A stretch of 64,000 bases of DNA from Planctomycetota bacterium. Lineage in GTDB: Bacteria; Planctomycetota; PLA2; JAEUHO01. Below are positions 1,469 through 52,463 of this stretch, piece by piece. The DNA lies in contig CBDCTJ010000007.1 in assembly GCA_965222115.1 (NCBI GenBank), positions 1,932,082 through 1,996,081 on the forward strand. The letters run 5' to 3'. Below the pieces are notes generated by a model, which was given only the letters and a program-made list of their open reading frames with translations, ran no database searches and had not been told where the DNA came from. Position 1 is the stretch's first letter. Each line of letters opens with the position of its first letter. The translations under genes were made by a program, and so were the position numbers.

Positions 1469-3562
1469 GTGAGGGTCGTCATGAAGTTTTCTCAGCTCAA
1501 AACCGCTCGATCCGGCACGGATGCGGTACGTCGTGTTCTTTGTGCCGCAACGCTCGCTTTGTTGAGCGTCATTGCGTTTTCTCCGACCACCAGCTTTGCT
1601 GGCGACGGTTCATTGGATCCCGATGCCTACCGCACGCGCGATGTGGGCTCCGGCAAGGTAACCATCGACGTGGATGACCAAGCCTTTGGTCAAGTTGTGC
1701 GCGAGCTCATCTCGCCAGCGACGTCCATGAACATCGTGGTTAGCGCGGCGGCAGAGTCCGAACCCGTCACGTTGCAGGTCCAAGACCTGCATTGGGTTCA
1801 CGCACTCAGCGCGCTCGCCAACAAGATTGGTGGCGTGATCATCGAAGAGGCGGACAATCTCATCAAGATTGAGCGCCCCGAGCCCGTCACGTTTAGTTAC
1901 ACCGACACCGACATTCGTGAAGTGATCGGTTCATTCGGCGATTACGCGGGCGCCAACATCATCGTAAGCCCCAAGGTAAGCGGCAATGTCACCGTCACGC
2001 TCAAGAACGTGCCTTGGCGACATGCGCTTGAGCAAATCGTGCGAACCGTTGGGCCCTATGCCGTGGTCGAAGAGAAGTTCGGCATGCTGCGTGTCGTGCC
2101 GCGAGATGAGCTTGAGCTCACGATGGCCTACCACCGCTTCAAGTTCATTCGTCCACCCGCACCCTATCGCGGTGTGATCGCCGGACAGGGCGGCGGCAGT
2201 GGCGGCGGCAGTGGCGGCGGAAGCGAGACACAGGCCACCGACGCCATCATTTTGGGCAAGCCCAATATTCCTTCCGACGACTACACCACCATCGAGGAGA
2301 CGTTCCCAATTCTCGGCGCACTCAAGCAGATCGTGACCGCGGATGGAGAAGGTGGAAACGTCAAGTATATCCCCTCTCAAAATACGATCGTCTTCACGGG
2401 TACAGCTCCGCGGATCCGCGAAGTGAAGGCCATGCTCAAGCAGCTCGACGTCGAGCCGCCGCAGGTTTTCATTGAGATGAATTTCATCGTGACCAGCAAC
2501 TCGGACGCGATCAACTTGGGCCTGGACGCGGGTGACGCCTCGGGCCTCAACATCGGCATGAGCGGTTCCGACATCATTCACGCCCTGCCCTTCAATACGG
2601 GCGGCGGCGATGGCCTAGCCAAGGCACTAACAGGAACTGCCTTCCCCGCTCCTGCGGCAAGTGCCTTCGGTCACGGTACACTCACCTTTGGTGAAACGCA
2701 GCTCCTCTGGAAATTCCTCCAGCGGGACTCGCGCAGCCGGATCGTTCAAGCTCCGAAGCTCTTGGCCCTGGACAATCAGGAATCCACGATCTTCATTGGC
2801 GAGTCGATCCGATACGCCCGTACGACAGCGGCAACCAACCAGAACGGCGGACTCACGTTCTCCGTAGAAGAAGATCCCAACAGTCCTGTGAGCGTTGGGT
2901 TCCAGCTCCTGGTGATTCCGCACATCATTCCGGGCGAACAGAAGATTCGCATGCTGGTTATTCCCCAGCGCCGCGCCCTTACGGGTACGGGGCCTTTGCC
3001 GGGGTTTGATCGCATCACGGTTTCCGGGCAGAGCATTGATCTGCCGCGTGTTCAGTCGAGTTCGTTGGTTACACACATGATTGTGCGCGATCGTGAGACG
3101 GCCGTCATCGGTGGCCTCATGGAAGAACGCGAAGTTGAACGCGCGGATAAGTGGCCCTTCTTTGGGGATCTCCCCATCATCGGGGCCGCCTTCCAAGGCA
3201 AGGAAAAGTCCATGGTTCGTGAGCACCTCCTCATCACCATCACTCCGCGCATTGTGCGCGGTACCGATGCGGTGAATGCGCGGGTGTCCGACGAACTGGC
3301 CAATCGACCTTATGAGTTGGCCGCCGAGTACGACAGCCTCTATAGCGGATGCGGTACACCCATGTACGGCACGCCTATGGGCGGCGGCGCGGCGACCTAT
3401 AGCACCGAAGTTCCCGGCACCCCGTCAGGTGGTGTCATCATTAAAAACTCCGGTGCTCCCGAAGTTGCTCCCGCCGACGTGGGCACACCTCCGAGCGAAA
3501 TGACCGCTCCCGGGGATGCCCCGCCCGCCGGCGAGCCGATTCCTGTAGCCCCTGGAAGGTAG
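1469..3562 (+). CDS. pilQ: Secretin (PilQ/GspD family) outer-membrane channel
   Basis: N-terminal signal peptide and N0/N1-like domains (VTLKNVPWRHALEQIVRTVGPYAVV). The C-terminal secretin core (NQESTIFIGESIRY..., VIGGLMEEREVERADKWPFFGDLPIIGAAFQGKEKSMVREHLLITITPRIV) is classic. A (GGGS)3 linker is encoded by a 12-bp tandem repeat at about 2189-2224. Confidence 0.85.
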   Translation: MRVVMKFSQLKTARSGTDAVRRVLCAATLALLSVIAFSPTTSFAGDGSLDPDAYRTRDVGSGKVTIDVDDQAFGQVVRELISPATSMNIVVSAAAESEPVTLQVQDLHWVHALSALANKIGGVIIEEADNLIKIERPEPVTFSYTDTDIREVIGSFGDYAGANIIVSPKVSGNVTVTLKNVPWRHALEQIVRTVGPYAVVEEKFGMLRVVPRDELELTMAYHRFKFIRPPAPYRGVIAGQGGGSGGGSGGGSETQATDAIILGKPNIPSDDYTTIEETFPILGALKQIVTADGEGGNVKYIPSQNTIVFTGTAPRIREVKAMLKQLDVEPPQVFIEMNFIVTSNSDAINLGLDAGDASGLNIGMSGSDIIHALPFNTGGGDGLAKALTGTAFPAPAASAFGHGTLTFGETQLLWKFLQRDSRSRIVQAPKLLALDNQESTIFIGESIRYARTTAATNQNGGLTFSVEEDPNSPVSVGFQLLVIPHIIPGEQKIRMLVIPQRRALTGTGPLPGFDRITVSGQSIDLPRVQSSSLVTHMIVRDRETAVIGGLMEEREVERADKWPFFGDLPIIGAAFQGKEKSMVREHLLITITPRIVRGTDAVNARVSDELANRPYELAAEYDSLYSGCGTPMYGTPMGGGAATYSTEVPGTPSGGVIIKNSGAPEVAPADVGTPPSEMTAPGDAPPAGEPIPVAPGR
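2189..2224 (+). repeat. 12-bp tandem repeat (GGCGGCGGCAGT x3) encoding the (GGGS)3 linker inside the secretin gene
   Basis: Direct read: ggcggcggcagt ggcggcggcagt ggcggcggaagc, in frame. Confidence 0.8.
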
Positions 3563-7177: not shown

Positions 7178-7250
7178 CCCGGACTCGAACCATTGAGATC
7201 GATGTTCACGAGGCCCACGATTTCCAAGGGGCCCAACAGGAGTACCAGTT

Positions 7251-8636: not shown

Positions 8637-9911
8637 GTGGATTCGACGGGCGACCTCCAATTTTTGCACGTTTCGGGGCCCACCATGCTCGACGAGATCT
8701 TGATCCACTTCAAAGTGATGGTGAAAGAACGCGCGTCCGACCTATTCCTGCGCGCGGGGTACCGTCCCGCGTCGCGCATCGACGGCGTGATTCGGTTTCT
8801 CTCCGATCAGATTGTGACCGAGGAACAGGCCGACGCGTTGCTCAATCACATTCTTGCGCCCAAGGACGTGGATGACTTCGAGCGGAGGAAGGAAAAGGAC
8901 ACCGCGTTCGTGGTGCCCGGCGTGGGTCGCTTCCGTTGCAACATTCTCCGTCAGCGTCAGCGCCTCGCATTCGTCTTTCGCCACGTGCAGGAATCTATTC
9001 CGCCCATGGAGGCCTTGCACCTTCCGGTAAAGCCCATTCAGTCGCTCGCCATGAAAGAACGTGGTCTCATCTTGGTCACCGGCACAACGGGTTCCGGTAA
9101 ATCCACCACGCTCGCGTCGATGATCGACTACATGAATCAGCGCGTGGCACGCCACATTGTGACCGTTGAAGATCCGATGGAGTTTGTGTTCCACGACAAC
9201 AAATGCGCCATCATGCAACGTGAAGTGGGCATCGATACGCTCGATTACCCCTCGGCACTCAAGGGTGTTGTGCGTCAGAGCCCCGACGTGATTCTGATTG
9301 GTGAAATGCGCGATGCCGAGACGGTGTCGGCGGCGCTGAGCGCTGCGGAAACAGGTCATTTGGTCATGTCCACCTTGCACACCATCAATGCGGTGCAGAC
9401 CGTTGAACGTATCATTAGCTTCTTCCCGCCCCATCAACACGACACGATTCGCTTGCAGCTCTCCATGACGTTGCAGGGGGTCGTCAGCCAACGTCTACTC
9501 ACGCGTCGCGCTGCGCCGGGTCGTGTACCTGCGATTGAAATCTTGTTGGGTACGCCCACGGTGCGTGAAATGGTGCTAGAGGGGCGCACCCTTGAGTTGG
9601 CCGATGCACTGGAAGAGGGTCACAAGTATTACGGCAGCCAGAGCTTCAATCAGAGCTTGGTGGCGCTGCTTCGCGAAGGCGTGATTGACATTGACGACGC
9701 TATGGCCGCGGCCGACAGCCCCGACGAACTCAACCTCGTTCTGCGCGGCATCTCCAAGGGAACGAGCAATCTCGACGCCACGCCCACGAGCGGCGCCAAA
9801 CCCGCCGAAGGCGAGTCGAAAATCCGCCACGGGTTTGAGGGTGCGACGAAGACGCCGGCCGCTTCGGGCAGCCGTTCGAGTTCAAAGTCGGGCACCTGGG
9901 GATCCTCGTAA
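8637..9911 (+). CDS. pilT: Type IV pilus retraction ATPase PilT/PilU family, with about 70-aa low-complexity C-terminal extension
   Basis: Walker A GTTGSGKSTTLASMIDYMN; PilT signature HLVMSTLHT; conserved EDPMEF and ILIGEMRD motifs. The likely true start is the internal ATG at 8685 (MLDEILIHF...ASDLFL). Confidence 0.85.
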   Translation: MDSTGDLQFLHVSGPTMLDEILIHFKVMVKERASDLFLRAGYRPASRIDGVIRFLSDQIVTEEQADALLNHILAPKDVDDFERRKEKDTAFVVPGVGRFRCNILRQRQRLAFVFRHVQESIPPMEALHLPVKPIQSLAMKERGLILVTGTTGSGKSTTLASMIDYMNQRVARHIVTVEDPMEFVFHDNKCAIMQREVGIDTLDYPSALKGVVRQSPDVILIGEMRDAETVSAALSAAETGHLVMSTLHTINAVQTVERIISFFPPHQHDTIRLQLSMTLQGVVSQRLLTRRAAPGRVPAIEILLGTPTVREMVLEGRTLELADALEEGHKYYGSQSFNQSLVALLREGVIDIDDAMAAADSPDELNLVLRGISKGTSNLDATPTSGAKPAEGESKIRHGFEGATKTPAASGSRSSSKSGTWGSS

Positions 9912-13872: not shown

Positions 13873-14409
13873 GTTCCCTCAAAAAATGGTGTTGGGATCA
13901 ACGACCGCTAAAAATTGTAATGGAATGATGTTTGCGATTCTTCCCTCGCCGGAATCGGTCCCGCCCGCGGCGGGAGACTGCTGCTAGCGAGCGCCGTTTG
14001 TTTGGTGTTCGTCTCGCAAACATATTGATTTCGGTTCGGTGTCGAATTTGAGGCAGTGGCGGTGCCGCTGCTATTTCGGTCGGTTTGTCAGTTAGAGCGG
14101 GTTCGGTCGTGACTGCGTCCAATATCCGCTTTACGGTTGACCGGCGCGTCCGTAAGTTAGGAGCGTTCAAAGGTTAGGAAAGTCCAGCGATCCGGATTCT
14201 TTGCGGTCCAGGGTCGTGGGGCGGGTTTTCGGTTGCGGGACGTTTACAAACACGGATTCACAAAGACAAGGGTTGGCTGAGCGCTGAGAACGAGTTTGTC
14301 GCGCTATCGAGTCAACGCCTTTGATTCACGAGAGTTTTTGGAAAGCAAGATCCCCTAAGAGCACATGCGTATCGCGAGCGCGTGAAGGTTGCGGGGTGAG
14401 GAGCTGCAG

Positions 14410-16707
14410 ATGGTCCGAACAAATCGAGAAGGACGAGTAAGGCAATCTCGCCTTATTCAGCGTGCGGCACGCCTACGTCAGAAGGTGGGCTGTGTACTCG
14501 CACTTTGTGCTTCGATCGGCGTGAGCATGATGGCCGCTTCGTGTGGCGGCGGGGGTACGGGTAGTGCCGCCGCAGAGATGCGTTTGGTCGAATTCCTAAT
14601 TGTGGACCGCGCGTTGAATCCAGCGGCCTCAACAGGAAGTTTGAGCGTTCCGCGCAATGCTCAGTTCTTGATGGTCTTTTCCGAGATTGTTGACCCGGCC
14701 ACGGTGGACCAGCAGACCATTCAGGTGCGCACCGGCCCGGCCTTTCAGAGCGTGCCTACGGGATCCTTCTCGGTGTCCGGTCGTCGCGTGGTCTGGGACC
14801 CAACGGTCGATGTGCAGGGCCAGCCCAATCCACAGGGGTTGCCGTCAATCCAACAGTTCAGCATCAACATTCCGAGCTTTGAAGAGCAGCCGGGTGTCGT
14901 AAACAACTTGGACGCCGACCCCAACTTGAGTGCGTTCTTCACCAACTTCACTACATCCGATGGCTACCTGCGCGAATTGGTTCCGCCGGAGTTTGTCGGG
15001 TTCTACTTCATTCCGGAGCCCGATCCACTTACCGGTCAGATTCCTGGCAATGGTGTCTTGGCACTAGAGTTCTCCGAGGCGATGGACCCCGCCACATTCA
15101 TTCAGTCCCTCGGACCGGAACCCACTGCAGCTTCTGGTGTCGATATCCGCTATTTGGGCGGCACGCCCATCACGCCGCCGCCGGCTGTCAACGCGCCGGT
15201 TGCGGGTAAGTCCATCCCCGGTACGTTCACCAACGACGCAGCCATGAAGACCTTCTTCTTCAAGCCTGCGTTCTCGTTCGGCGATCAGAACTTTGTGTTC
15301 AACTTCAGCGTGTTTCAGGCGCTCAAGGATCTCGCGGGCAACTCGCTGATCAACCCTCAGAGTCGTGGCGATTTCGTTTGCGACGGTCTCGGAAACGCGA
15401 CGGGTTCGTTGCTCATTCAGGATTTTGAAAACACCGGTCCGTTCAAGCCAGACCACGACATCACGGCGGCGCCACCCGCCGACTGGGGTACGGGTGAAGC
15501 GGGCACGTTGCAGGGCGTACTGACTCCGCCGCGTGAGCAGACGATCTACGGGTACTTTGAGGCCGATGGGAATGACGACGGGACTTCAAATCGCGGCCAA
15601 TACTCGGCCACTCCCGATCCATTGGTAGGCGCAGATTTGAATCAGTTCGTTACGCCGGCCGTTCCCACGTCGGAAGGGCGTCGTGTGATGTTGTCCTTTA
15701 GCCATGAGGATATGGGGCCGCGTGGCAGCATTGTGGGCGCCGGCTGGGGGCCCGATTTCAATCGCACGTTTGCGGCGCTGTATCAGAACATTTATCTGCG
15801 CGCTGGCTACCAAGCCAACGACAGCGTGACATTGTCTGCTTCGTTCGCTGCCAACTTCAAGGGCGACCCCGCGCTGCTTTATCAGGGTGACTACACCGTG
15901 GGTAGTAATGCGGACGTTGGCAACAAGGCTACGCCTACCTATAATGGAGAGCCAAACGTCGGTGGTGCGCCAGGTTGCGTTTTTGCGAACTCGACGACCC
16001 AGTTCCTGTTTGACTGGACGGGCTTTTACGACTGGCCGGCATTTACAAACTTCTTTGAATGGGATCCGGCTCCATCCACATCGGGTGCCGACCCGGTGTT
16101 CATATTTGACGCCAGCGTGCCGGAAGGTTCTACGTTCCAGGCCATGCGTCGGTGGTCGGCGACCACGTTCGTGTGCTCGGGATTCCAGATTCCTTCTTAT
16201 CCGCTGCGGCGGTTGATGGGTATCTACGAGCAAGACGTAGTCAAGCCGCCGGAGCAGTTTGGCGTCACGCGCAATCCTGAGAACTCACTTGCCGACACGT
16301 TGTTCACGATCAGGACAGTGCGGAGCCTTGCGCGTTCGAAGTTCTACACGCCCACATTGCCGCTTCCGGGTGATCCCACGTTCCCCAACGGGGTTTCGGG
16401 TGGGTCCGTGTCGCTTGGTGGGACCACGTTCGGTACGAATTCGGATTATCTGACGCCTCAGATTGTTCCGCCCGTACAGGCGGGCGGCGCCAAGGTCGTG
16501 ATTGAGTACCAGGGTGCACAAGCGGTGCTTGCAGATCGCACCACCATCGACGCTGCGTTCCCGTTCACGGACTGGACACAGAATATCGATGACTGCGATG
16601 GCTATGCGTGCATTCGCTGGCGCGCCACGTTGATTGCCAACATTGTGAGCGAAGTTGTTCCCCAGGTCACTTCGATCACCATTCCGGTGCAGTCGTCCGG
16701 CCCCTAG
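14410..16707 (+). CDS. Large secreted lipoprotein with N-terminal SbsA/Big_5-like Ig domain (unknown function)
   Basis: GAGGAG RBS 6 nt before ATG 14410. Signal peptide plus lipobox (MMAASC) then a Gly run. Ig-like motif SLSVPRNAQFLMVFSEIVDPATVDQQTIQV. Paralogous in its N-terminal part to the next gene. Confidence 0.6.
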   Translation: MVRTNREGRVRQSRLIQRAARLRQKVGCVLALCASIGVSMMAASCGGGGTGSAAAEMRLVEFLIVDRALNPAASTGSLSVPRNAQFLMVFSEIVDPATVDQQTIQVRTGPAFQSVPTGSFSVSGRRVVWDPTVDVQGQPNPQGLPSIQQFSINIPSFEEQPGVVNNLDADPNLSAFFTNFTTSDGYLRELVPPEFVGFYFIPEPDPLTGQIPGNGVLALEFSEAMDPATFIQSLGPEPTAASGVDIRYLGGTPITPPPAVNAPVAGKSIPGTFTNDAAMKTFFFKPAFSFGDQNFVFNFSVFQALKDLAGNSLINPQSRGDFVCDGLGNATGSLLIQDFENTGPFKPDHDITAAPPADWGTGEAGTLQGVLTPPREQTIYGYFEADGNDDGTSNRGQYSATPDPLVGADLNQFVTPAVPTSEGRRVMLSFSHEDMGPRGSIVGAGWGPDFNRTFAALYQNIYLRAGYQANDSVTLSASFAANFKGDPALLYQGDYTVGSNADVGNKATPTYNGEPNVGGAPGCVFANSTTQFLFDWTGFYDWPAFTNFFEWDPAPSTSGADPVFIFDASVPEGSTFQAMRRWSATTFVCSGFQIPSYPLRRLMGIYEQDVVKPPEQFGVTRNPENSLADTLFTIRTVRSLARSKFYTPTLPLPGDPTFPNGVSGGSVSLGGTTFGTNSDYLTPQIVPPVQAGGAKVVIEYQGAQAVLADRTTIDAAFPFTDWTQNIDDCDGYACIRWRATLIANIVSEVVPQVTSITIPVQSSGP

Positions 16708-17027
16708 TTCGAAGAGATCGCGCCGAGAGGATTGCGTCGAGATGAACGCGGGATTGTCGGTGGCACGCTCGCGAGTTATGAAGCACGAACCCGGCGGTCA
16801 TGGGACCGCCGGGGGCTCGTTCGACGAGCGACGTATAGATCAAGAGTCGAGAGTCCAAGAGACTTCGAGCGAGCGGCACATGTGTGAGACGTATGCCCAG
16901 AGGGTGCGTTTCAAGCGCACGAGGCGTTTAGGTCAAGGCGTAAGAAACATAGAGAATCGTGAGTCGGTCCGTTCAGTGGCATCTGCGCGCGGCTGACTTG
17001 AAAAGAAATCGTAAGGAGATTCGTTCG

Positions 17028-20000
17028 ATGAATCTTAGTCAAGCAAATACGAATCAGGGCACGGCCTCGCGAGGCGGCTGGATCCGTGCGCGGCTAGCCT
17101 GCATTGCGCTCATGGTGAGTGTCGTCAGTGTCGGCACCAGCATGACTTCATGTGGTGGCGGTGGAGGCGGTGGGGGTGACCCCGACCTCGTGCTGGTGGG
17201 GTTCAACCTGCCAAACATTTCCGGGGTTGCGCTCAACACGCCCATCATCCTCACCTACAGCGCACCGATTGATCCGCAAAGTGTCACGCTCGATACGCTG
17301 CGAATCACCGGGAACCCCAACCCGCAATTTGACCGCACGATTGTTGACGGCGCGGTGATTGCGGTGCTGCCGCAGACCCCCAGCTTCTCCGACTACTCGG
17401 ATGTGGGACTTGCGCCGGGGACGACCTATACGGTCAGCATGCCCACCTTCCCCGCGATCGACACGATTGAATCGACCTCGGGGAAGCCGTTGCTTGAAGC
17501 CGAGACCTACAACTTCACCACGACGCCCACCATTACGTTTGTTGAGCCGCGCCGCGCGTTCTTGTATGGCGTTCCTCCGAGCGCAGGTGGAACCAGCGAC
17601 ACCGAGGGGTGTTTGCAGAACTCGCAAAACGCGCTCTACGTGTCGCCTACCGTGGATCCGTCCGTCGTACAGACCGGGTCGGCGCCGGGTGCGAACTTGA
17701 TTTGTTTGTGGAACCAGGGCGCGCCGCGCGTCATTGAGCCCTCCGCCACACCTCGCCACGACCAGCGCGCGGTTGGCCTGCCTTCCAACGCATTGCCTGG
17801 CTTCGTCGAGATTCCTGCGATTCGTATCCCCATCAATGAGCCGCTCGATCCGCTTACGGTCGCGCAGTACATCCCCACGTCACAGTTGGGCGTGAATGTC
17901 CAGTTGTGGCACGTGGCCGAAAGTGATGGGACCTTCCCGCCCTTCAACGGCATCCGTCAGATTCCGACGAACCAGCCGAGCGCCATTCAGGACAACGGTA
18001 GCTTCGAGATTCTGCTCGTGCCATCAGGTCCTATTCCGCAGGGTACGTTTGTTATCAACATCTCTCCTGCGGTCACGGACCTACCTGGCAATGGTCTCAC
18101 GACGGCCGACGCCCCGTCTCCTGCGATTGGCGGATACGATCAATACACGGGTCAGACCGCGTTCACCGACACGATTCCGGCTGGATACAAGATCTTCTTC
18201 CAGACGTTGCAAGTGCCTGGCGAGTTCTTGTCGTTGGCGGACCAGTTTGATGCCAACACCCATGAGTGGGGCGATCTCGCCAACGGCGACGCGGAAACGA
18301 TCAACGACGAGACGGGTGTGTTCACCATGAGCACGACCCCCGCCGATCCCGATGACGACAACACCGGTGGTACAACGACGCCGAACAAGACCACGACGTT
18401 TACTGCCGCGGATCCCAGTGCCACGTTCATTGGACAGTCAACCACGGCCAACTGGGGTGGCGGCAATCTCGCCACCACCGGTTTCCGATTCATGAATCTG
18501 GACAGCCTGCGCGTCAACGAAGACGCGGACTCGGGCGCAAGTGCTCTTAAGGCGGTGTGGAAGCCCTACTCCGGTTCCGGTGTGGATGGCGTGTTTACGA
18601 CAACCAGTTCGCAGACCATCGACACCACGCCGGGCAGTGCTACCGCGAGTAGCAATGCAGACGCGATCTACGAATTCGAGGAGTTCACCGTCGCTGCTGG
18701 GCACACGCTCACCGTATCGGGTAGCCGCCCGCTCGTGATTCTTTGCCGCGGCGACGTCACGATCAATGGCGAGATTCACGCCAACGGAGCGCAAGGCGGC
18801 CCCGGTCTTAACACGGACGGTTCAGCTACCTATACCAATCCGCCGACGATTCCGTTTGGTGGCGAAGGCGGTGCTGCAAACGCCGGCGGTGGCCGAGGCG
18901 GCAACGGCGCCGACCCCGTGTTGGCCATTGCATCAGGTAACGGAACTGGACCCGAGAGCATCTTCGGCACGTTCCTTGCCGAGAACACCGTGAGTGGTGG
19001 TGGTTCGGGTATATCGGGTGATGACTCCGCAGCAGGCGGCAACGGCAACAACGAAGTGGCCGGTGGTGGCGCCGGTGGCGGCTTCGCGACCGCTGGTGGC
19101 GGAGGCACATTGGCCGATGGCGGCCTTGGTAGCACAGCCGGTGCAGCCTTTGGGAATCCCGAGTTCCATCGCCTCTTGACTCACTTCCAACCCGATCGTG
19201 GCTACAGCCCCATGGCTGATGTTACCGGAGGTACTGGTGGCGGCGGTGGCGGCTTGGACGATGACAATGGCGCCGCTGAGCTTGGCAATGCCACGCCAGA
19301 GAACGGTGACGATGGCGGTGGCGGTGGTGGCGCCGGTGGCGGTGGCATCATGATCATTGCGCACGGCAAGATTACCGTTGCCGGTTCGATTCAGTGCAAC
19401 GGTGGCGCCGGTGGTAATACCTACGCCGAAGCCGATCAGACGGTAGACGGCACGCCCGCGGTTACGGGCGTCAATCTTGCGGCCGCGGCCTCCGGTGACG
19501 GTGGTCCTGGTGGCGGTGGCTCGGGTGGCGGCATCTTGCTTGCCGGTCGTGATGGCGTCGAGGTTACGGCTGCCGGATCAATATCTGCCGTGGGTGGCGC
19601 CGGTGGCGCCTCGGGCGACATCGATTTGGTCGGTGGTACGGGCAGCGATGGCCGCATTATCCTCGCCAAGTTTGCTGGCGCAGGTGGCACGGTAGTCAAT
19701 AGCGGCACCGTCAATCCCGCACCCACGACAACCGTGGACTATGCGCCCACAGTAGATCTTGCCAGTGTTGCGCAGAGCGACTGGTACGACTTGCTAGGAC
19801 CTCCCGTAGTGTTCGCACCCAAGGTTCCGGATACGCCAACGGGTATTCCGCAGTTGCCGGTTTTCAATAGCAACTTCTCGGACCTCACGGCAGCTGGCCT
19901 TGTGCAGGGAACCGACTGGGACGCCGTTTGGGAGTTCCAGGGCGCAGATACGCTCACGCCCGAGCCCAATGCAACTGCAACGGGTACGCCCACGCCCACG

Positions 20001-20177
20001 TCGGCAACGGGTCTCACGAGTTGGGAGCCCGTGTCCAACATTACGGCAATCAACAACAAGCGTTGGGTGCGCTATCGCTGGCGTTTCTTCGTCGCCGATA
20101 CGTACAACGGATGGGGCGTCGGCACCGCCGATCCGCTGCCGCAAGTCACAGACGTAGTAATCCCGTTCCGGAAGTAG
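17028..20177 (+). CDS. Large secreted lipoprotein: Ig-like N-domain plus C-terminal Gly-rich (beta-helix-like) region
   Basis: AAGGAG RBS 8 nt upstream of ATG 17028. Lipobox TSMTSC followed by G8. Ig-like motif NTPIILTYSAPIDPQSVTLDTLRI. About 300 aa of GG(A/S)GG repeats with periodic hydrophobics (IMIIAHGKITVAGSIQCNGGAGG, ILLAGRDGVEVTAAGSISAVGGAGG). Confidence 0.6.
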   Translation: MNLSQANTNQGTASRGGWIRARLACIALMVSVVSVGTSMTSCGGGGGGGGDPDLVLVGFNLPNISGVALNTPIILTYSAPIDPQSVTLDTLRITGNPNPQFDRTIVDGAVIAVLPQTPSFSDYSDVGLAPGTTYTVSMPTFPAIDTIESTSGKPLLEAETYNFTTTPTITFVEPRRAFLYGVPPSAGGTSDTEGCLQNSQNALYVSPTVDPSVVQTGSAPGANLICLWNQGAPRVIEPSATPRHDQRAVGLPSNALPGFVEIPAIRIPINEPLDPLTVAQYIPTSQLGVNVQLWHVAESDGTFPPFNGIRQIPTNQPSAIQDNGSFEILLVPSGPIPQGTFVINISPAVTDLPGNGLTTADAPSPAIGGYDQYTGQTAFTDTIPAGYKIFFQTLQVPGEFLSLADQFDANTHEWGDLANGDAETINDETGVFTMSTTPADPDDDNTGGTTTPNKTTTFTAADPSATFIGQSTTANWGGGNLATTGFRFMNLDSLRVNEDADSGASALKAVWKPYSGSGVDGVFTTTSSQTIDTTPGSATASSNADAIYEFEEFTVAAGHTLTVSGSRPLVILCRGDVTINGEIHANGAQGGPGLNTDGSATYTNPPTIPFGGEGGAANAGGGRGGNGADPVLAIASGNGTGPESIFGTFLAENTVSGGGSGISGDDSAAGGNGNNEVAGGGAGGGFATAGGGGTLADGGLGSTAGAAFGNPEFHRLLTHFQPDRGYSPMADVTGGTGGGGGGLDDDNGAAELGNATPENGDDGGGGGGAGGGGIMIIAHGKITVAGSIQCNGGAGGNTYAEADQTVDGTPAVTGVNLAAAASGDGGPGGGGSGGGILLAGRDGVEVTAAGSISAVGGAGGASGDIDLVGGTGSDGRIILAKFAGAGGTVVNSGTVNPAPTTTVDYAPTVDLASVAQSDWYDLLGPPVVFAPKVPDTPTGIPQLPVFNSNFSDLTAAGLVQGTDWDAVWEFQGADTLTPEPNATATGTPTPTSATGLTSWEPVSNITAINNKRWVRYRWRFFVADTYNGWGVGTADPLPQVTDVVIPFRK

Positions 20178-20435: not shown

Positions 20436-20873
20436 ATGCCCGAGAGCCTTCCCGCCGCAGTGAGCCTCCGTGTACCCACGGACCTCGTCTTTGTTCGCCC
20501 CGTGCGAAAGATGATCGAAGGCTTGCTTGGGGGGCAAGGGTGGGGCGAAGACGATGTTGACGATGTGGCGATGATCGTTACCGAGGTCGTGCAGAACGCG
20601 ATTGAGCATGGGTCGCGCGCCGATGGCTCGGAGTGGATCGATGTCTCCATCGGGGTGCACGAGTCGTCGTTTTCGCTGGACGTGGCCGATCCCGGATCCG
20701 GCAAAGATCCTTCGATCGCCGTCACCCATGATGTGAGCGAACCGCCGTCGTTGGAAGCCGAACGCGGTCGCGGTCTTTTCCTCATCCATCGGCTATCCCA
20801 TCGATTTGAGCGCGTCCCCGCCGAGAGTGGTGGCCTACGGGTCCGAGTACTAAAGGAGGCGGGGACACCATGA
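20436..20873 (+). CDS. Anti-sigma regulatory factor, HATPase_c Ser/Thr kinase (RsbW/SpoIIAB-like)
   Basis: VTEVVQNAIEHGSRADGSEWIDVSIGV and ADPGSGKDP (N-box/G-box of GHKL kinases). 145 aa. Its stop overlaps the next start (ATGA). Confidence 0.7.
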   Translation: MPESLPAAVSLRVPTDLVFVRPVRKMIEGLLGGQGWGEDDVDDVAMIVTEVVQNAIEHGSRADGSEWIDVSIGVHESSFSLDVADPGSGKDPSIAVTHDVSEPPSLEAERGRGLFLIHRLSHRFERVPAESGGLRVRVLKEAGTP

Positions 20874-22156
20874 GCGATTCAATGTGGGATGTGCTCACGG
20901 GCAACCAAGAGCACGATCGCAGAAATGTGCGCGCGTTGCTCGAGTCGGTTCGTGAACTTTACGGCCGGCAAGCGCCCGCCGAACTTCAACGCCGTGTCGT
21001 GGATCGCGCCATTTCGGTTACGGGCGCTGAGCGCGGAATGTTGTTTCTCGTAGGTGAGGACGAACAACTCCGCGCGGCGGTTGCGCGCAAGGGCGGTGCG
21101 GATGTTCCCCTGGATATGCCGCACAGCGGAACGGTCGTCAACAAGGTTTGGAGTTCCGGTAAGTCCTTTCACACGGTCGATACGGCCGAGGCAAGTCAGA
21201 GCTCCCTTAGCGCGTCCATCGTAGCGCTCAAGCTTCTATCCGTAATGGCCGTGCCGCTTCCGGTAAAGGGCAAAGTCGCCGGTGTGCTCTACGTTGATAG
21301 TACCGCCCGGTCTCGTGAGTTCACCGACGCCGATATGACGGTGTTCGAAGTGTTGGGCGGCATGGTCGCTGTAGCTGTCGAGAATGCGCGGCTTTTGGGG
21401 GAAGAGGAAAAGAAGCAGCGTTACGAAGAGGAGTTGCGGATTGCGCAGCTCATTCAAACGCAGTTGTTTCCTCGAAAACTGCCACAAGGACCCGATTTCC
21501 AAATCGCAGCTGTGGGGCGGCCCTGCGAAGAGACCAGCGGCGACTACTACGATGTACTGCAACTGAAGAACGGAAACGTCGCTTTGGTGGTCGGCGACGT
21601 AAGCGGCCACGGTGTGGGTCCTGCGCTTCTCACCTCGTCTACACGGGCGTTGCTCCACTCCTATGTACATATGGGCATGGATCTCGTTCAAGTCGTCGAA
21701 AACCTCAACCAGTTCTTCGTGCGCGATGCACCTGACGACAAGTTCATGACGTTTTTCGTCGGTATGTTTGATCCGCGCTCACGCCAACTTCGATTCGTGA
21801 GTGCCGGCCATAACCCGCCGCTGATTTGGGTTGCCGCACGAGACGAGGTCGTCAGTTTGAAGCCTTCGGGGCCCGCGCTTGGCTTCCTTGATGAAGCCGT
21901 GTACGCATTGCAAATGACGGATCCGCTTGAGCCGGGCGACGTTGTTTTGGCCTACACCGACGGCCTCACGGAAGCGCGAAATCAGGCGGGCGACTACTGG
22001 GGCGATGACGCCATGATGCGCGTGTTTGTGGAGCAGGCCAAAGGCGGCGGCACGGCCGACGATATTCTCACGGGCGTCTTGCGCACGGTGGACCAGTACG
22101 TGGGCGACCAGCCCTGGGAAGATGACGTCACGGGCTGGGTCCTGCGCGCGTCGTAG
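20870..22156 (+). CDS. GAF domain plus PP2C-type (SpoIIE/RsbU-like) serine phosphatase
   Basis: N-terminal GAF-like region. PP2C motifs SGDYYDV, ALVVGDVSGHGVGPALL, AYTDGLTEARN. Confidence 0.8.
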   Translation: MSDSMWDVLTGNQEHDRRNVRALLESVRELYGRQAPAELQRRVVDRAISVTGAERGMLFLVGEDEQLRAAVARKGGADVPLDMPHSGTVVNKVWSSGKSFHTVDTAEASQSSLSASIVALKLLSVMAVPLPVKGKVAGVLYVDSTARSREFTDADMTVFEVLGGMVAVAVENARLLGEEEKKQRYEEELRIAQLIQTQLFPRKLPQGPDFQIAAVGRPCEETSGDYYDVLQLKNGNVALVVGDVSGHGVGPALLTSSTRALLHSYVHMGMDLVQVVENLNQFFVRDAPDDKFMTFFVGMFDPRSRQLRFVSAGHNPPLIWVAARDEVVSLKPSGPALGFLDEAVYALQMTDPLEPGDVVLAYTDGLTEARNQAGDYWGDDAMMRVFVEQAKGGGTADDILTGVLRTVDQYVGDQPWEDDVTGWVLRAS

Positions 22157-27330: not shown

Positions 27331-30132
27331 ATGCGGTCGAACCAATGGACGAGGCTACCCATGGATGCAGTTAATCCCCGAACCGGCTCGGGCGAGATTT
27401 CCAGTCTCGGCCTTCGCGATGTGACGGTTGTAACGCCATGCGATACAACCGAGCGCAGCGCGTTTACGACAAGCTCACGCGCGAGATGGGCAGTGACACC
27501 GACGACGCATGAGCGCGCACTGCGTGTGCGCCAACTGTTGCGTACAACGGCCATGGCGAGCGTGGCGGCGCTCATGAGCCTTGCCATGTTCGGTACAGCC
27601 TTTGGTGAAGACTTCCCACTGGGCGATCCACCTGCCGAGAAGATTGTCGAAGAAGCGAAGAAGACTGCGTCGGACGTAGCCAAGAAAGCTGGCGAAGTTG
27701 CGGAAGCCGTTGGTGAAGCCGCCGAGACGGCTGCGAAGCCAATCAAAGACGCTGCAAAGAAGGCGGCCGACGCGCTAGCGAAAGACTCGTCGAGTACGAA
27801 AGATGAGCCCAAGGCCGAGTCCAAAGCCGAAGCGCCTAAGGACAACGGGCAAAAGCAACCCGCGGCTGCGGGGACAACCGGCGCAACCGCACCCTCGCCA
27901 GACGGCGCGAGTGCAGCGTTGGAGCGCGAAAACCCCGGCACACCGATTCCACCCGCGCCGGGAACCTCAACAAACGCACATGCTCCCAACCCGATGGCGC
28001 CGCGTGCCGTTCAGTACCGTTTGGAACAGCGATACGATCCGCGTACCGGGCGGCGTTTCTATGTGCGTGTACCGGTCGTACCGACTGCTGTAAGCGCACG
28101 GGCAACGAATCCGCAAGGCATAGGCGGCCGCCAACCCGCCGCCCAGCCACCCCTTCCAACTCGCGTTGGCCAAGTCGCCACGGCCGACCAACTTGCTGGC
28201 CAAACGTGGGTCGAGGTACTTCCCGACGGTCGCCGCATTTTGCATCGTCCCAAGACGGCGGGCACACGTCCCAACGGCACACCCAATACGGCGGACGCAC
28301 CCGCGTCACCGGGTTCTTCATCGCAACCCGGGCAGCCCGAGCCTGCCATCGGCGACACCGGCGCGCCGCCAACCAGCAATGGTGGCCAGTCACCGAACGG
28401 CACAATTAGTCCTGGAACTACAGGTAGTCCCGGAACTACAGGTAACCCTGGATCCGCCGCCCCCGATTCCGGCATTGGCATGCCGCCCGCAGAGGGCGCA
28501 TTCCCGGAGCCCACGGCCGATCCCGATGGTGCGGAACGTACAGCCGAAGATGCAGAGGAGGACTCGCCCGGAGCTTCTTCTAAGAATGAAACGGATGATG
28601 CCGGCCAGCCCTCGGAAGGGGATGACACCAATCCCTTCAACCCCGGCGAAGACGCTGACGCGACGAATGCTGAAGAATCCGGCGCTACCGATGCCAATGC
28701 GAGCGATCCGGCCTCCGCCGCCCCCGCGGCCAAAAACCTGCCAACGCCCGGCTCAAGTGCCGATCTGGGGACTCTGCCAGGATTGAAAAAACCCCTGGCG
28801 CCGCCAGCCGTGGATCCTGCTAGCAATGACCCCGCAGATTATGGCGACCCTCGCCATGTGGGTTCCGGTGGCTTTGAAGATGTGGGTCCGCCTTCACCTC
28901 CCGCCAGTTCGTCGAAAGAGCCCGCGGCTCCGACGTCCACTGAGACAGACGACGGTGGATCGATTTGGGCACCAGCCGAAGATGACACGACAAGCGAAGA
29001 TGTGCCGGAGGGTGCTGCGCCCACGGGAACGTCAACGCCTGTAGGTAAATCAGGCGAAGATGAAATCTGGGCCCCCGCAGCCGATGCACCGGGTTCCTTT
29101 GAAGATATCGATCGTCCTGCTCGAACCGATTCGGTGCCCGCCTCGACCGCCTCTTCCTCGTTGCAGGCACGGGTTCAAGAACACATTACGCTTCTGCGTG
29201 ATCGACCCGGTAGCGCGGGCGTTACGGCATATCCCGGCAGTCTGATTCAGCGCTCCCCAGCGGATGTGGCATTGGAACCTCGCCGAAAGGCGTGCGTGAT
29301 CGCATTCTTTGATGACACGTCGCGCGGTTCAGCAAACTTCGCCGCCGATGTTCTTCCCGTGCTTGCCAACTACCGCGATGAAATCGAGTTTGTTGCGATT
29401 GAGCAAAACTCCGACGCGAAGCCAAGTCCCACCGAAGAGCGCGTTGTGCGACGCTATTTGCAAGCCGTGCCCGGGTTGGTCGTGTTGCCCCCCAATCGAG
29501 ACGACCCGCGCATTTTCAACAGTCGCTATACCGCGGACGACATTGAAGAGGCGTTGGAACTTGCCGTGCGCGCACCCACGGCGTCTTCGCCATCGCGTCC
29601 CGTCGGCTCAGGGCCCATCGACGACGGTGGAACCGAACCTCCGTGGCATCCCAACGACACGCCACTTGTGCGTGAGCCCAAGAATCCCGCGGGACGCTTG
29701 GCGGGCGATGAGATTCGCACCACGGCCCGTGCACACGCAGACGAACTCCGACGCAATGCTGGTGACCCCGATCTTGTCGGATATCCGCGATCCCTGCTAA
29801 GTACTACGGCCCCGGCCGCCATTCTTGAGCGCGGCCAAAAGCCGCTCGTGATTCTGTTTTATGACGACAGCGCGAAGGCTTCCGACCGACAAGCCGCCGA
29901 ATTCTTGCCACTGCTGATTCGTCGCAGCGACGACATCGACCTCATTTTGATCGATGTGAGCACAAAGGCCGAGTGGAACGCGGTGGAACAGAAGATTGTT
30001 CGAACCTACTACATGTCCTACGTACCCACGACGGTCGTACTCACGTCGCGTCGTGCGCCCGTGCGCTCCTGGTACCACCTGGTTCGCGCCCGTGACTTGG
30101 AACGTGCGATCAACGAGGCCGCGCGAAAGTAG
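27331..30132 (+). CDS. Secreted Ala/Pro/Gly-rich protein with C-terminal tandem duplicated thioredoxin-like (CxxC-less) domains
   Basis: Probable signal peptide at internal Met 27553 (MASVAALMSLAMFGTAFGE). A/K/E-rich amphipathic repeat region, a long P/G/T/S/D-rich disordered region, then two about 130-aa homologous domains (ACVIAFFDDTSRGSANFAADVLPVL... and PLVILFYDDSAKASDRQAAEFLPLL...). Confidence 0.6.
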   Translation: MRSNQWTRLPMDAVNPRTGSGEISSLGLRDVTVVTPCDTTERSAFTTSSRARWAVTPTTHERALRVRQLLRTTAMASVAALMSLAMFGTAFGEDFPLGDPPAEKIVEEAKKTASDVAKKAGEVAEAVGEAAETAAKPIKDAAKKAADALAKDSSSTKDEPKAESKAEAPKDNGQKQPAAAGTTGATAPSPDGASAALERENPGTPIPPAPGTSTNAHAPNPMAPRAVQYRLEQRYDPRTGRRFYVRVPVVPTAVSARATNPQGIGGRQPAAQPPLPTRVGQVATADQLAGQTWVEVLPDGRRILHRPKTAGTRPNGTPNTADAPASPGSSSQPGQPEPAIGDTGAPPTSNGGQSPNGTISPGTTGSPGTTGNPGSAAPDSGIGMPPAEGAFPEPTADPDGAERTAEDAEEDSPGASSKNETDDAGQPSEGDDTNPFNPGEDADATNAEESGATDANASDPASAAPAAKNLPTPGSSADLGTLPGLKKPLAPPAVDPASNDPADYGDPRHVGSGGFEDVGPPSPPASSSKEPAAPTSTETDDGGSIWAPAEDDTTSEDVPEGAAPTGTSTPVGKSGEDEIWAPAADAPGSFEDIDRPARTDSVPASTASSSLQARVQEHITLLRDRPGSAGVTAYPGSLIQRSPADVALEPRRKACVIAFFDDTSRGSANFAADVLPVLANYRDEIEFVAIEQNSDAKPSPTEERVVRRYLQAVPGLVVLPPNRDDPRIFNSRYTADDIEEALELAVRAPTASSPSRPVGSGPIDDGGTEPPWHPNDTPLVREPKNPAGRLAGDEIRTTARAHADELRRNAGDPDLVGYPRSLLSTTAPAAILERGQKPLVILFYDDSAKASDRQAAEFLPLLIRRSDDIDLILIDVSTKAEWNAVEQKIVRTYYMSYVPTTVVLTSRRAPVRSWYHLVRARDLERAINEAARK

Positions 30133-34227: not shown

Positions 34228-36261
34228 ATGCCTACGGATCGACCCCAAGACTCCCGCTTTCCCCGCGATCCCCGCCTAATGGGTCGTGCCGGGGAGCCGC
34301 ACGCAAGAGCCGACGACGCCAACAAATGGATCTTTGAGGCGAATGAATGCCTTGAGATTCCCGAGCAGCGTTCTTCGTGGCGAGATTCGTCTTCGCAGAC
34401 TGGAGAAGACGTAGGAGTTGATCCGAGCCTCGTATCGACATTGCTAGCCGACGAGGCGCTTCGCCGGCTCGTGATCGAGGTGGCTCGCGTGGAATTGGAA
34501 GAGGAATATTCGGCCGGGTCCGATTCGGTGGCTCACGTTGGTGGTCCCACCGCCGATCGACTCGCAGAGAATGGACTCGCAAGCGTTGGTGCGGGGAGCC
34601 CTGGATTGGCGCCCACCATTCGCCAGGCGGCCATTCGTGCCTTTAGTGAGTCGTTGGCTTTTGATGAGTCATCGAATGTTCTAAATGGTGCTGGCTCAAA
34701 TGGTGTCTCGCCTTCGCTCAGGCTCGTAACAGTGTCCAATCGAAAGGCCGAGTCCAATCGAGAGGCCGATGAGAAGCAGTCGTCGGCTGCTGCTTCTGAA
34801 CGTTCTGCGGGGAAGGCCAACACGTCGTTTCCTTGGATCCGCATTGCGGCGTTGGTGTTGGTCGCCGTGGGTACCGCCGCGTTGTGGGTCGGGTCCACGC
34901 CCACGAAAGCCGAGGCGGGGTTGTCGCTCCAACGCATTGGTCGTCTCAGCCATCGTGGTGCGGTGTGGTCCCTTCCCAGCATTGAGCCCGCGCGCATTGC
35001 GCATAAGGGCGAGTCGTTTACGCCTCGTGAAGATGAATGGGTGTCGGTCGGACTCACGCATGAGTCGATGGTGGTCGTCGGCACCGGCGATCGCGTGCGC
35101 GTCGTTCCCGCGGAGGAGGTTTTCGCTTCGTTTGATGTCGACTCGATTGAAGCCAATCGCCACACAAAAGCACTTGGCGCATCGATCCGTCCAGGTCAGG
35201 GCATGCTTCGCTTGGAAGCGGGCGAAGCACGTATTGCGTGCAAGCCCGGTGAACCGGTGGTGTTGGCCATAGGTACCGCTGGTGTGCTCGTCGTGGACTA
35301 CGGCGCGGTCCATGTCGTCTTGGAGAGCGGGCTTGCGCATCCGATTGAGTCGGGACGATCGACGGCACGAATCGCAAGTGATGTGAGCGCGCCTCTCATT
35401 GCGCTCGCGCCTCGCAGTCGCGCCGAGTTTTATCCATCCGGCCGATCGAACACGGACTCGAGCACTGCATCGAGCGAGGTGTCGTCAACAAACGATGCAA
35501 CATATGAGAGTTTTGTTTTGTGCGCCGGCGCGCGCGCATTGGTTGGCGACGGCTTTGTTGAGCCCGTAGGGGCGGCCGATCTTTCGCTGTTTCGTGAGCT
35601 TCGATTCTTCGGCGGTCATGTGCCGCGTCCCTTGGCACAGCCACGTGTTCATCCGCGTCGATTCCGCGTGGGCGGTGTAGTGGCTCGCACGGGACGGCAC
35701 GAAGTCTCTTTAGGCTATCGTCGATCGACGAAGCGCGATAGTGAGCGCAAGCAACCGGAAACCCATGCGGCCTATTACATTGCCCGACTCTCCTATCGGC
35801 CGCCGCCGGCATTGGCGGATGCACAGTCGATTCGTGTAGAACTGCGGGCGCCGAAGGGCGCGGCCGCTTGGCTCTTGCGTGAGCCCATCGCGTTGAAAGA
35901 CCTTCGCGTTCTCAAATCACCGCCTGCGTCGGCGGTAGTGAACGATGCGAATACGGCGTCGCATGAACCGAGCACGGCTCATTTCGAGCTCGCGCTTCCC
36001 CGCGGTTGGTATGCCGCGCTGAACGGTCGCCCACTCGAAATTGCGCTCTGGTTGCCCGTGTCTCGGGCGGTGCAGAATCAAGGATCCGGTACGCCGTCGT
36101 CGCGACCGTCGCGTTTTGGTCGGCTCGGCGTCTTTGACGGCGTAACGTTTGTTCTTGAGGAAGGCGACGGCGTGTACGACACGCCGCGTAACGATTCAAA
36201 TCCTTGCTCCATTCCTTCTGGAAATGAACCTGCTTCCACGACGAAGCGGAGGAATTCATGA
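34228..36261 (+). CDS. FecR-like domain membrane protein (anti-sigma/sensor-like)
   Basis: A TM near aa 200 (WIRIAALVLVAVGTAALWV), followed by a FecR-like beta-rich region (RLEAGEARIACKPGEPVVLAIGTAGVLVVDYGAVHVVLESG). Its stop overlaps the start of the giant gene. Confidence 0.45.
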   Translation: MPTDRPQDSRFPRDPRLMGRAGEPHARADDANKWIFEANECLEIPEQRSSWRDSSSQTGEDVGVDPSLVSTLLADEALRRLVIEVARVELEEEYSAGSDSVAHVGGPTADRLAENGLASVGAGSPGLAPTIRQAAIRAFSESLAFDESSNVLNGAGSNGVSPSLRLVTVSNRKAESNREADEKQSSAAASERSAGKANTSFPWIRIAALVLVAVGTAALWVGSTPTKAEAGLSLQRIGRLSHRGAVWSLPSIEPARIAHKGESFTPREDEWVSVGLTHESMVVVGTGDRVRVVPAEEVFASFDVDSIEANRHTKALGASIRPGQGMLRLEAGEARIACKPGEPVVLAIGTAGVLVVDYGAVHVVLESGLAHPIESGRSTARIASDVSAPLIALAPRSRAEFYPSGRSNTDSSTASSEVSSTNDATYESFVLCAGARALVGDGFVEPVGAADLSLFRELRFFGGHVPRPLAQPRVHPRRFRVGGVVARTGRHEVSLGYRRSTKRDSERKQPETHAAYYIARLSYRPPPALADAQSIRVELRAPKGAAAWLLREPIALKDLRVLKSPPASAVVNDANTASHEPSTAHFELALPRGWYAALNGRPLEIALWLPVSRAVQNQGSGTPSSRPSRFGRLGVFDGVTFVLEEGDGVYDTPRNDSNPCSIPSGNEPASTTKRRNS

Positions 36262-52191: not shown

Positions 52192-52463
52192 GTGGGGCTC
52201 TTGTGGAGTCGTTCCGTGTTGTCTGCGAGAGGGCGACGCTCATCTCACGCAGAGGCGCAAAGGACGCGGGGGCGCAGAGGGCGGCCTGTTTAGGAGCGCG
52301 GCCTTGCGGAAGTGGGCACTGCTTGGTGGGGGAGGGGACTTGAAGAAAAAGCTCACACGAAGAGCGCCAAGGAACGAAGCGCAGGCGTGGCGGAGCAGTG
52401 TTCGAGAATGTGGAGGAGTGTCTGGTGGCGGGACGGTTTTTTGGAGAAGAAGGCTCTGTCGCG

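Follow-up and report, generated by a model that had tools for sequence, protein, structure and literature searches.

What do two large neighbouring lipoprotein genes contribute to the envelope of an uncultured planctomycete? The genes, here termed A and B, occupy positions 14410-20177 of a 64,000-nucleotide stretch (the window, meaning the whole of the DNA analysed) of contig CBDCTJ010000007.1, from the Planctomycetota bacterium assembly GCA_965222115.1. The original prediction for this locus was a tandem pair of giant, paralogous surface adhesins, possibly under partner-switching control. The answer favoured here, to which we would give an even chance of being right, is that A and B are two subunits of a conserved, lipid-anchored complex of the envelope surface, characteristic of one uncultured Planctomycetota lineage. 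It is carried by the lipoprotein signals of both proteins, by the homology of their two ends and by the conservation of the pair as a unit.

Two adjacent lipoprotein genes

The genes and their start signals, the latter read from the sequence, are as follows.

14410-16707, + strand: gene A, a 765-residue lipoprotein (mature form 77 kDa, isoelectric point 4.3)
14398-14403, + strand: Shine-Dalgarno site of A, GAGGAG, 6 nt before the ATG at 14410
14410-14544, + strand: signal peptide and lipobox of A, with Cys45 at 14542-14544, then GGGG
17028-20177, + strand: gene B, a 1049-residue lipoprotein (mature form 101 kDa, isoelectric point 4.05)
17013-17018, + strand: Shine-Dalgarno site of B, AAGGAG, 9 nt before the ATG at 17028
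17028-17177, + strand: signal peptide and lipobox of B, with Cys42 at 17151-17153, then a Gly8 tether

The two same-strand reading frames thus lie where the tandem pair had been placed, each with the strong ribosome-binding site claimed for it; at 765 and 1049 residues the proteins are large rather than giant. Both mature forms are acidic, and the codon usage of the pair is ordinary (effective number of codons 46-48).

Both N-termini begin with an Arg-rich n-region, followed by a hydrophobic stretch and then by a lipobox, which reads ...MMAAS|C45 in A, followed by the GGGG run, and ...SMTS|CGGGGGGGG in B, where Cys42 is followed by GGGGGGGG. The PROSITE-type rule [LIVMFWSTAG]2-[LIVMFYSTAGCQ]-[AGS]-C near the N-terminus is obeyed by 50 of 51 members of the A family and by 46 of 47 members of the B family, the single B exception being N-terminally truncated. 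The Cys column is invariant in the A family and at least 90% conserved in the B family. The proposed lipobox Cys followed by poly-Gly is therefore present in both proteins and conserved across both families, and A and B each have the sequence attributes of a bacterial lipoprotein processed by signal peptidase II.

The C-termini offer no second anchor of a familiar kind. A sorting signal resembling PEP-CTERM had been suggested as a point to check; neither a PEP-CTERM/exosortase nor an LPXTG/sortase-type signal is present, the last 30 residues (...YNGWGVGTADPLPQVTDVVIPFRK) containing no hydrophobic helix and NCBIfam returning no match. B does terminate in VVIPFRK, as originally described, and in the AlphaFold2 model this end is the final strand of a folded domain and not a sorting tail. 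On these grounds we regard sortase- and exosortase-type signals as excluded.

A and B are related at both ends

Alignment of A with B by BLASTP is confined to the first ~200 residues (25% identity, E 2e-4). Comparison of the family profiles with hhalign places the homology in two modules: the signal peptide together with the first immunoglobulin (Ig)-like domain (98.4%, E 8e-15, 135 columns), and the last ~75 residues (98.0%, E 1.6e-13, 30% identity), which fall within what is referred to below as the C-terminal domain (CTD). The two CTDs have in common the motif EFQGA...T-W...DG..(I/F)RWR...P.V..I.IP., and the CTD hidden Markov model (HMM) of one family matches the proteins of the other reciprocally, with E values of 4e-6 to 1e-4. 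Because both end modules are homologous in these profile comparisons, A and B are paralogous at both ends with unrelated middles. The earlier description of the two as paralogues consequently holds for the N-terminal ~135-200 residues and the last ~75, but not for the parts in between. An HMM scan found neither the CTD nor the Gly-rich domain of B in any other open reading frame (ORF) of the window, in which the pair is single-copy.

Domain organization

The domains of the two proteins were delimited as listed; confidence is given as the predicted local distance difference test (pLDDT) of the AlphaFold2 models.

14578-15423, + strand: two tandem Big_5-type Ig-like domains of A (residues 57-183 and 194-338; Pfam Big_5, AlphaFold2 strands, Foldseek)
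15424-16425, + strand: central beta-rich domain of A (residues 339-672; pLDDT mostly above 85)
16426-16704, + strand: CTD of A, homologous to that of B (hhalign, reciprocal HMM cross-matches)
17181-18065, + strand: Big_5 Ig-like domain (residues 52-166) and second Ig-like domain (residues 174-346) of B (Pfam, Foldseek)
18066-18662, + strand: linker or third domain of B (residues 347-545; block-mean pLDDT 57 to 97, lowest at about residues 410-470)
18663-19718, + strand: Gly-rich, beta-solenoid-like domain of B (residues 546-897; internal repeats, AlphaFold2, Foldseek against BFVD)
19719-20174, + strand: C-terminal beta domain of B (residues 898-1049), last strand VVIPFRK (AlphaFold2 strands and one helix, pLDDT ~90)

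The models, which were made with the family alignments, are confident (pLDDT 83.8 for A and 86.2 for B). An SbsA/Big_5-like motif had been noticed near each N-terminus; there are in fact two xFSExxDPxTV-type motifs, the Big_5 signature, in each protein, and the Big_5 HMM and the predicted folds agree with them. Against a Pfam gathering threshold of 23.6 bits for Big_5 (PF13205), A scores 29.3 bits, its second Ig domain being matched weakly; B scores 21.5 bits at full length, which is below the cut-off, and 28.1 bits when residues 48-524 are scanned alone. Big_5 is matched in 45 of 47 members of the B family (E<=1). In the PDB, Foldseek relates the Ig region of B to the Ig domain of LdtMt2 (probability 1.0, rmsd 2.5-3.2 Å over 114-119 columns) and to SbsC, and that of A to the spacer domain of LdtMt5, the S-layer protein SbsC and the MG domains of ECAM. 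The full-length searches gave matches confined to the N-terminal tandem Ig domains; since these domains dominate the ranking, such searches are uninformative about the C-terminal halves of A and B.

The remaining parts are without named relatives. The central domain of A has no Pfam, NCBIfam or PDB sequence match, the linker or third domain of B (residues 347-545) has no family match, and the CTD has none in Pfam or NCBIfam. Searches of A, B and both family profiles against the sequences of solved structures returned only Gly linkers.

That the best solved matches of the Ig domains are spacer domains of mycobacterial L,D-transpeptidases suggests a different role, in which A and B would be periplasm-facing lipoprotein spacers or scaffolds in the biogenesis of the envelope (peptidoglycan or a lipopolysaccharide-like glycan), comparable to the Ig spacers of the L,D-transpeptidases or to the Lpo activators. 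Such a match, however, reports a generic fold that occurs in S-layer proteins too, and the Pfam, NCBIfam and PDB sequence searches revealed neither a catalytic nor a known regulatory domain in A or B. Further evidence on this reading comes from the relatives and from the gene neighbourhood, below.

The Gly-rich domain of B

The Gly-rich region of B is about 350 residues long, with a Gly content of 26-40% per 50-residue block over residues 601-900 and of 18% in residues 551-600. A Gly-rich tail of about 300 residues had been placed at 18750-19700; the span is close to this, but it is not a tail, as a non-Gly domain of ~150 residues follows it. Nor is it built of tandem GG(A/S)GG repeats. The repeating unit is ~40 residues long and consists of poly-Gly followed by hhIhAxGxhxVxGxIxAxGGxGG; about four such units (at approximately residues 567, 773, 834 and 875) are spaced by long Gly/Asp-rich insertions. 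Comparison of the repeats with one another, using family profiles in hhalign, gives 97.8% and E 8e-13 for the second against the third and 93% and E 3.6e-7 for the first against the second.

In the AlphaFold2 model each of these units is a triplet of 3-5-residue strands as assigned by DSSP, in keeping with the periodic beta-strands originally proposed and consistent with a beta-solenoid of which the units would be the rungs. The Gly/Asp-rich stretch of residues 596-773 has almost no helix or strand by DSSP, with a pLDDT that is mostly ~85-95 and falls to 64-79 at about residues 640-680. The domain bears runs of 6-11 consecutive Gly residues followed by hydrophobic strands, and it contains invariant Asp, Arg and Glu columns, for example in the motifs F-x-P-D-R and DTDG. 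A Foldseek search of BFVD, a collection of predicted viral structures, found proteins of giant viruses and phages annotated as collagen-like or PA14, with E values from 4e-12 to 2e-7 and an identity of 18-21% over ~400 columns; lower in the list (E 2e-3) is a phage protein annotated with a "glycine-rich domain". As modelled, the domain fits a beta-solenoid with large Gly-rich excursions.

It could not be assigned to a described family. Residues 525-911 of B have no Pfam match at E<=10, a scan that included AIDA, pertactin, Pmp (Chlam_PMP), haemagglutinin and Beta_helix, and the HMMs of beta-helix families give no match at E<=1 across 47 members of the B family. There is no NCBIfam or PHROGs match, the PDB profile search yields Gly linkers only, and the ice-binding family DUF3494 has no Pfam match in B or its family. 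The suggested likeness to parallel beta-helix adhesins or ice-binding proteins is thus not borne out at the level of sequence families. Homology to the Gly-rich domain of ALK/LTK was considered separately and ruled out (hhalign probability 2.9%).

Misassembly of the Gly tract had been raised as a concern. The DNA is not tandemly repetitive, Tandem Repeats Finder reporting nothing beyond micro-repeats of 15-43 bp, and 47 independently assembled B homologues have dozens of invariant Gly columns in common; the tract is therefore not an assembly artefact.

Two further explanations turn on this domain. The first is that A and B are classical adhesins, in which a beta-helix head, presented on an Ig stalk, would bind a substrate or another cell, and an RsbW/PP2C module would switch expression. 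An Ig stalk with a beta-solenoid-like head does resemble many adhesins, yet none of the adhesin or Beta_helix HMMs named above is matched even at the permissive threshold. The second is that B has enzymatic activity, for instance as a polysaccharide lyase or hydrolase (beta-helix folds often being enzymes), with A as its accessory binding subunit. The solenoid-like repeats and the invariant Asp, Arg and Glu columns could be read in that way; however, no pectate-lyase, Beta_helix or glycoside-hydrolase model and no solved-enzyme sequence is matched, and the conserved acidic residues would suit metal binding or a structural role equally. We consider an enzymatic role for B very unlikely.

Distribution and related proteins

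Besides the copies in the window, 66 homologues of A and 57 of B were found. All are from metagenomes or metagenome-assembled genomes, the few named ones are labelled Planctomycetota or Planctomycetes, and none in either family bears a functional name. The C-terminal half of B is distributed more widely. A profile of residues 541-1049 searched against 1.84 billion representative proteins recovered 1021 clusters (defined at 50% identity) at E<=1e-3, 286 of them at E<=1e-10, so that the Gly-rich domain and the CTD define a large uncharacterised superfamily. Ten of its members were scanned with Pfam: two gave no match, and the other eight have Big_5, TIG or CBM_5_12 domains. Among the relatives of the Gly-rich module are proteins 1000 to 7400 residues in length, some with carbohydrate-binding modules. 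In the 7437-residue Ig-like-domain protein of Desulfopila sp. IMCC35008 (WP_304511247.1), 17 stretches match the B profile, best on the rung unit, which suggests that proteins of other phyla can carry the unit in many copies. A scan of the genome collection with the B alignment was saturated by poly-Gly and gave one weak deltaproteobacterial match (locus L006); the word-indexed homology search with the CTD alignment returned five fragments only.

Of 155 related proteins that were fetched, 66 contain the CTD, with a median distance of 3 residues to the C-terminus. Its last strand generally has hydrophobic residues alternating with polar ones and F, Y or K at its end. About 20 of the 66 CTD-bearing proteins have a lipobox. 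Taken with the Big_5, TIG and CBM_5_12 domains, the frequent lipobox gives these proteins the apparent make-up of extracytoplasmic surface proteins. Terminal position is the sole likeness of the CTD to the type IX secretion CTD; NCBIfam, in a scan that would include models of the Por_Secre_tail type, gave no family for A or B, and Planctomycetes are not known to possess type IX secretion.

The carbohydrate-binding and TIG domains of related proteins could be counted in favour of adhesins. The large size of the Gly-rich relatives and their carbohydrate-binding modules are typical of extracellular proteins and count against a periplasmic scaffold.

Conservation of the pair and its neighbourhood

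Ten complete loci, that of the window and nine others, were available for comparison. A and B are adjacent and in the same order in all ten, including L011, where they are 25-26% identical to the window copies. The order common to these loci is (secretin) - RNase E/G - L21 - L27 - Obg - T2SSE-type ATPase - PDZ protein - CoaX - (PyrB) - (PyrC) - long gap - A - B, and a further record, L009/L010, has the same upstream order on contigs that end just past an A-like gene. Identity to the window copy is 45-48% for A and 42-50% for B, beside 55-69% for Obg, CoaX and PyrC and 27-36% for the PDZ protein. The pair is under fairly strong purifying selection. A single-copy pair of the core genome at 42-50% identity would be better explained by a conserved structural role than by an adhesin that evolves fast; such even conservation is unlike that of typical, variable adhesins.

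The conserved syntenic block that includes A and B also encodes a GspD-type secretin (1469-3562) and a 424-residue, PilT-sized ATPase of the T2SSE family (8637-9911), which might have a part in exporting the two proteins.

In seven of the ten loci B is directly followed by two radical S-adenosylmethionine (SAM) genes, mostly of the SPASM type, a glycosyltransferase family 9 (GT9) heptosyltransferase-like gene, a membrane/tetratricopeptide-repeat (TPR) protein of ~580-730 residues (encoded by two separate genes in L007) and one more radical-SAM gene, the third. The cluster lies at 13099-21190 in L001 and has equivalents in L003, L005, L007, L008, L011 and L013; it ends with a divergent carbamoyltransferase in six of the seven, L011 having a Ser/Thr kinase there. 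The window is without the cluster, L004 retains only the membrane/TPR gene (29% identity, E 5e-15) and in L012 the position is occupied by unannotated genes. The membrane/TPR protein (~670 residues) has weak matches to a family for the formation of cell-surface glycopolymers (E 2.4e-4) and to GtrII (E 0.029). Two candidate assignments in the cluster were set aside. For the GT9 protein as a protein heptosyltransferase of the TibC/Aah type, the solved structures nearest to it are WaaF and WaaC, and TibC does not appear in its PDB matches; for the membrane/TPR protein as a GT-C glycosyltransferase, the GtrII match is weak and there is no PDB match. In most relatives, glycosylation of the pair by the neighbouring glycan genes is possible.

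For the periplasmic-scaffold explanation, the position of the pair amid housekeeping genes, the GT9 and membrane/TPR glycopolymer-type genes that directly follow it in most relatives, and a conservation near that of housekeeping genes all speak in its favour. Set against the generic nature of the Ig match, the lack of a detected catalytic or regulatory domain and the extracellular character of the Gly-rich relatives, they leave it quite unlikely in our estimate.

The downstream kinase and phosphatase

Two genes for a kinase and a phosphatase follow B in the window.

20436-20873, + strand: RsbW-like HATPase_c_2 kinase (Pfam)
20870-22156, + strand: GAF and SpoIIE/PP2C phosphatase (Pfam)

The Pfam assignments confirm the kinase/phosphatase pair described downstream of B, and its location 258 bp away would suit switched adhesins. 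The direct adjacency is found in the window only. In six of the nine other complete loci six genes, one of them on the opposite strand, separate B from the kinase/phosphatase; in L004 and L012 one or two genes intervene; and in L011, the most distant locus, the kinase/phosphatase is absent and a Ser/Thr kinase stands in its place. The ORFs that were scanned include no STAS antagonist. The adjacency is an accident of lineage-specific gene loss in this genome and hence is no evidence of regulation; because it is specific to this genome, the suggested partner-switching control of A and B is unsupported. With a kinase/phosphatase one to six genes from B in eight other loci and absent from the most distant, with no STAS partner and with an evenly conserved core-genome pair, the adhesin explanation as a whole is, in our judgement, unlikely.

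The upstream region and the hairpin between A and B

Non-coding elements around the pair are the following.

13873-14409, + strand: long intergenic region upstream of A, 537 bp, 54.2% GC against 59.4% for the window
13921-13935, + strand: conserved sigma-54-like -24/-12 motif TGGAATGATGTTTGC with GG-N10-GC spacing, a predicted promoter element
14130-14158, + strand: conserved sigma-70-like element TTTACG-17 nt-TAAGTT, predicted from a conserved block
16790-16813, + strand: perfect 10-bp GC-rich hairpin CCCGGCGGTC-ATGG-GACCGCCGGG between A and B, without a T-tract

The AT-richer gap that had been noted upstream of A is a feature of the lineage, a gap of 420-650 bp preceding the A homologue in every related locus. 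Within it the conserved sigma-54-like block reads TGGAATGnnGTTTGC (GG-N10-GC) and lies 220-490 bp upstream of A in every locus checked; the motif is invariant in the alignment. Six related locus records each have its core, GGAATGNNGTTTGC, in a single copy, always upstream of A; the six records represent five distinct loci, L002 being a duplicate of L001 (L001 7437-7450, L003 7462-7475, L004 7042-7055, L005 7395-7408, L007 7576-7589). L008 has a one-mismatch match, GGAATGGGGATTGC, at 7178, where one such match is expected by chance. No gene for a sigma-54 activator or enhancer-binding protein was found among the scanned ORFs of the window. The sigma-70-like block reads CCCTTTACC-N17-TAGAGT (TTTACC-17-TAGAGT) in the relatives, and the element at 14130-14158 would imply a 5' untranslated region of ~250 nt for A. 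A consensus promoter and terminator scan and Rfam gave nothing significant in the intergenic regions of the pair.

Of the perfect stems found downstream of 27 genes of the window, that of the hairpin after A is the longest. In most of the related loci that were folded, a comparably strong or stronger hairpin lies just past the A stop codon, at the same position and with a different sequence. It may serve as a terminator, an attenuator or a stabiliser of the mRNA, and given its presence between the genes A may be terminated or attenuated separately from B.

A model for the A-B pair

As subunits of a lipid-anchored surface complex, A and B would each cross the membrane through Sec and receive a lipid on the lipobox Cys, and a flexible poly-Gly tether would suspend each protein from the membrane. 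The two Ig-like domains would act as spacers that keep a distinct distal domain off the membrane: in A the beta-rich domain of ~330 residues, in B the Gly-rich beta-solenoid of poly-Gly/three-strand rungs. The first Ig domain and the CTD, which A and B have in common, would most likely let them dock to one another or to a common partner at both ends. The outcome would be a fixed two-component surface structure, resembling a coat or S-layer and perhaps able to bind a ligand, rather than a variable adhesin. An outer-membrane or surface location is probable, A and B probably associate, and the pair presumably has a structural (coat) or binding role.

Several points weigh against this model. The sequence does not decide between a surface and a periplasmic orientation of the two proteins. 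The glycan cluster is missing beside the pair in the window and in two close relatives, so at this locus any reliance on it cannot be obligatory. The ordinary codon usage gives no hint that A and B are expressed at the very high level usual for S-layer genes, and the strong hairpin suggests that A and B may not be strictly co-transcribed. The alternatives considered above, namely adhesins, a periplasmic scaffold and an enzyme, are each less well supported than a surface complex.

A bolder version can also be put forward. The CTD, ~100-150 residues long, would be a new sorting or anchoring module, a functional analogue of the type IX CTD outside the Bacteroidota that marks more than 1000 clusters of Gly-rich beta-solenoid surface proteins. 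A and B would then build an S-layer of two components, anchored by lipid and perhaps glycosylated, whose Gly-rich fold, possibly with polyglycine-II helices, is without a solved representative. We regard this as a long shot.

The envelopes of uncultured Planctomycetota are poorly understood, and in one such lineage the pair, as an envelope component conserved in the core genome, offers a concrete target for proteomics and imaging. The analysis also delimits two widespread domain families that lack Pfam and NCBIfam coverage, the poly-Gly/three-strand rung domain and the strictly C-terminal beta domain, both with confident structure models. In sum, A and B are a real, conserved and uncharacterised pair of envelope lipoproteins, and not a new kind of system.

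Other features of the window

A group II intron lies at 52458-54344 on the - strand, its Rfam matches (D1-D4 169 bits, gpII domain V/VI 44.6 bits) flanking a 511-residue reverse transcriptase ORF (52536-54071). Near it, in a stretch of lower GC at third codon positions (0.55), is a gene for a GmrSD-type restriction endonuclease (56528-58315); together they may form a small mobile or defence island. A multihaem cytochrome-like protein at 22199-23950 matches a UshA-like (seleno)protein model, and a DUF1573 protein at 23969-25297 matches the OS_HP2 (seleno)protein model. Several large ORFs, at 36258-41846 (1862 residues), 27331-30132 (933 residues), 34228-36261 (677 residues) and 46781-48565 (594 residues), have either no Pfam assignment or a marginal one (Rcc01698_C in the ORF of 1862 residues).

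Comparison with known systems

Like proteins of the Big_5/SbsA type (PF13205; SbsC and the LdtMt2 spacers), A and B bear Big_5-type Ig domains, both by HMM and by fold. Big_5 spans just ~15-35% of the two proteins, however, and the remainder is without family assignment.

The Gly-rich domain of B invites comparison with domains built of polyglycine-II, such as those of the ALK/LTK extracellular domain and of the phage S16 adhesin gp38. B similarly has Gly runs followed by hydrophobic strands and long, confidently predicted stretches that lack DSSP helix or strand, and its structural matches are Gly-rich viral proteins. It differs in having no profile homology to ALK and in that the PDB profile search finds only Gly linkers.

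Surface lipoproteins of the pullulanase (PulA) type leave the cell by type II secretion. A and B are likewise predicted to be lipidated and may reach the surface, and a secretin and a T2SSE-family ATPase are encoded in the same syntenic block; the ATPase is, however, PilT-sized, and the block also contains unrelated housekeeping genes.

The autotransporter adhesins AIDA-I and TibA are paired with cognate heptosyltransferases, Aah and TibC (PMC4358343). A repetitive, predicted beta-solenoid surface protein beside a GT9-type gene is likewise what is seen in seven of the ten A-B loci. In contrast to these adhesins, A and B have no autotransporter barrel and no AIDA HMM match, the GT9 gene is missing from the window, and the GT9 proteins of the relatives are nearest to WaaF and WaaC.

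The closest functional analogy is the S-layer pair TfsA/TfsB of Tannerella forsythia, large, Ig-rich proteins encoded side by side, with a common CTD and an association with glycosylation (PMC4175972, PMC8869499). A and B differ in being N-terminally lipidated, by prediction, and in that their CTD matches none of the type IX secretion models. Like TfsA and TfsB, they are large putative envelope proteins encoded by adjacent genes, with Ig-like domains and a common CTD; in these terms they present what a two-component S-layer would be expected to show, namely co-located structural genes whose products have in common an anchoring- or sorting-like module.

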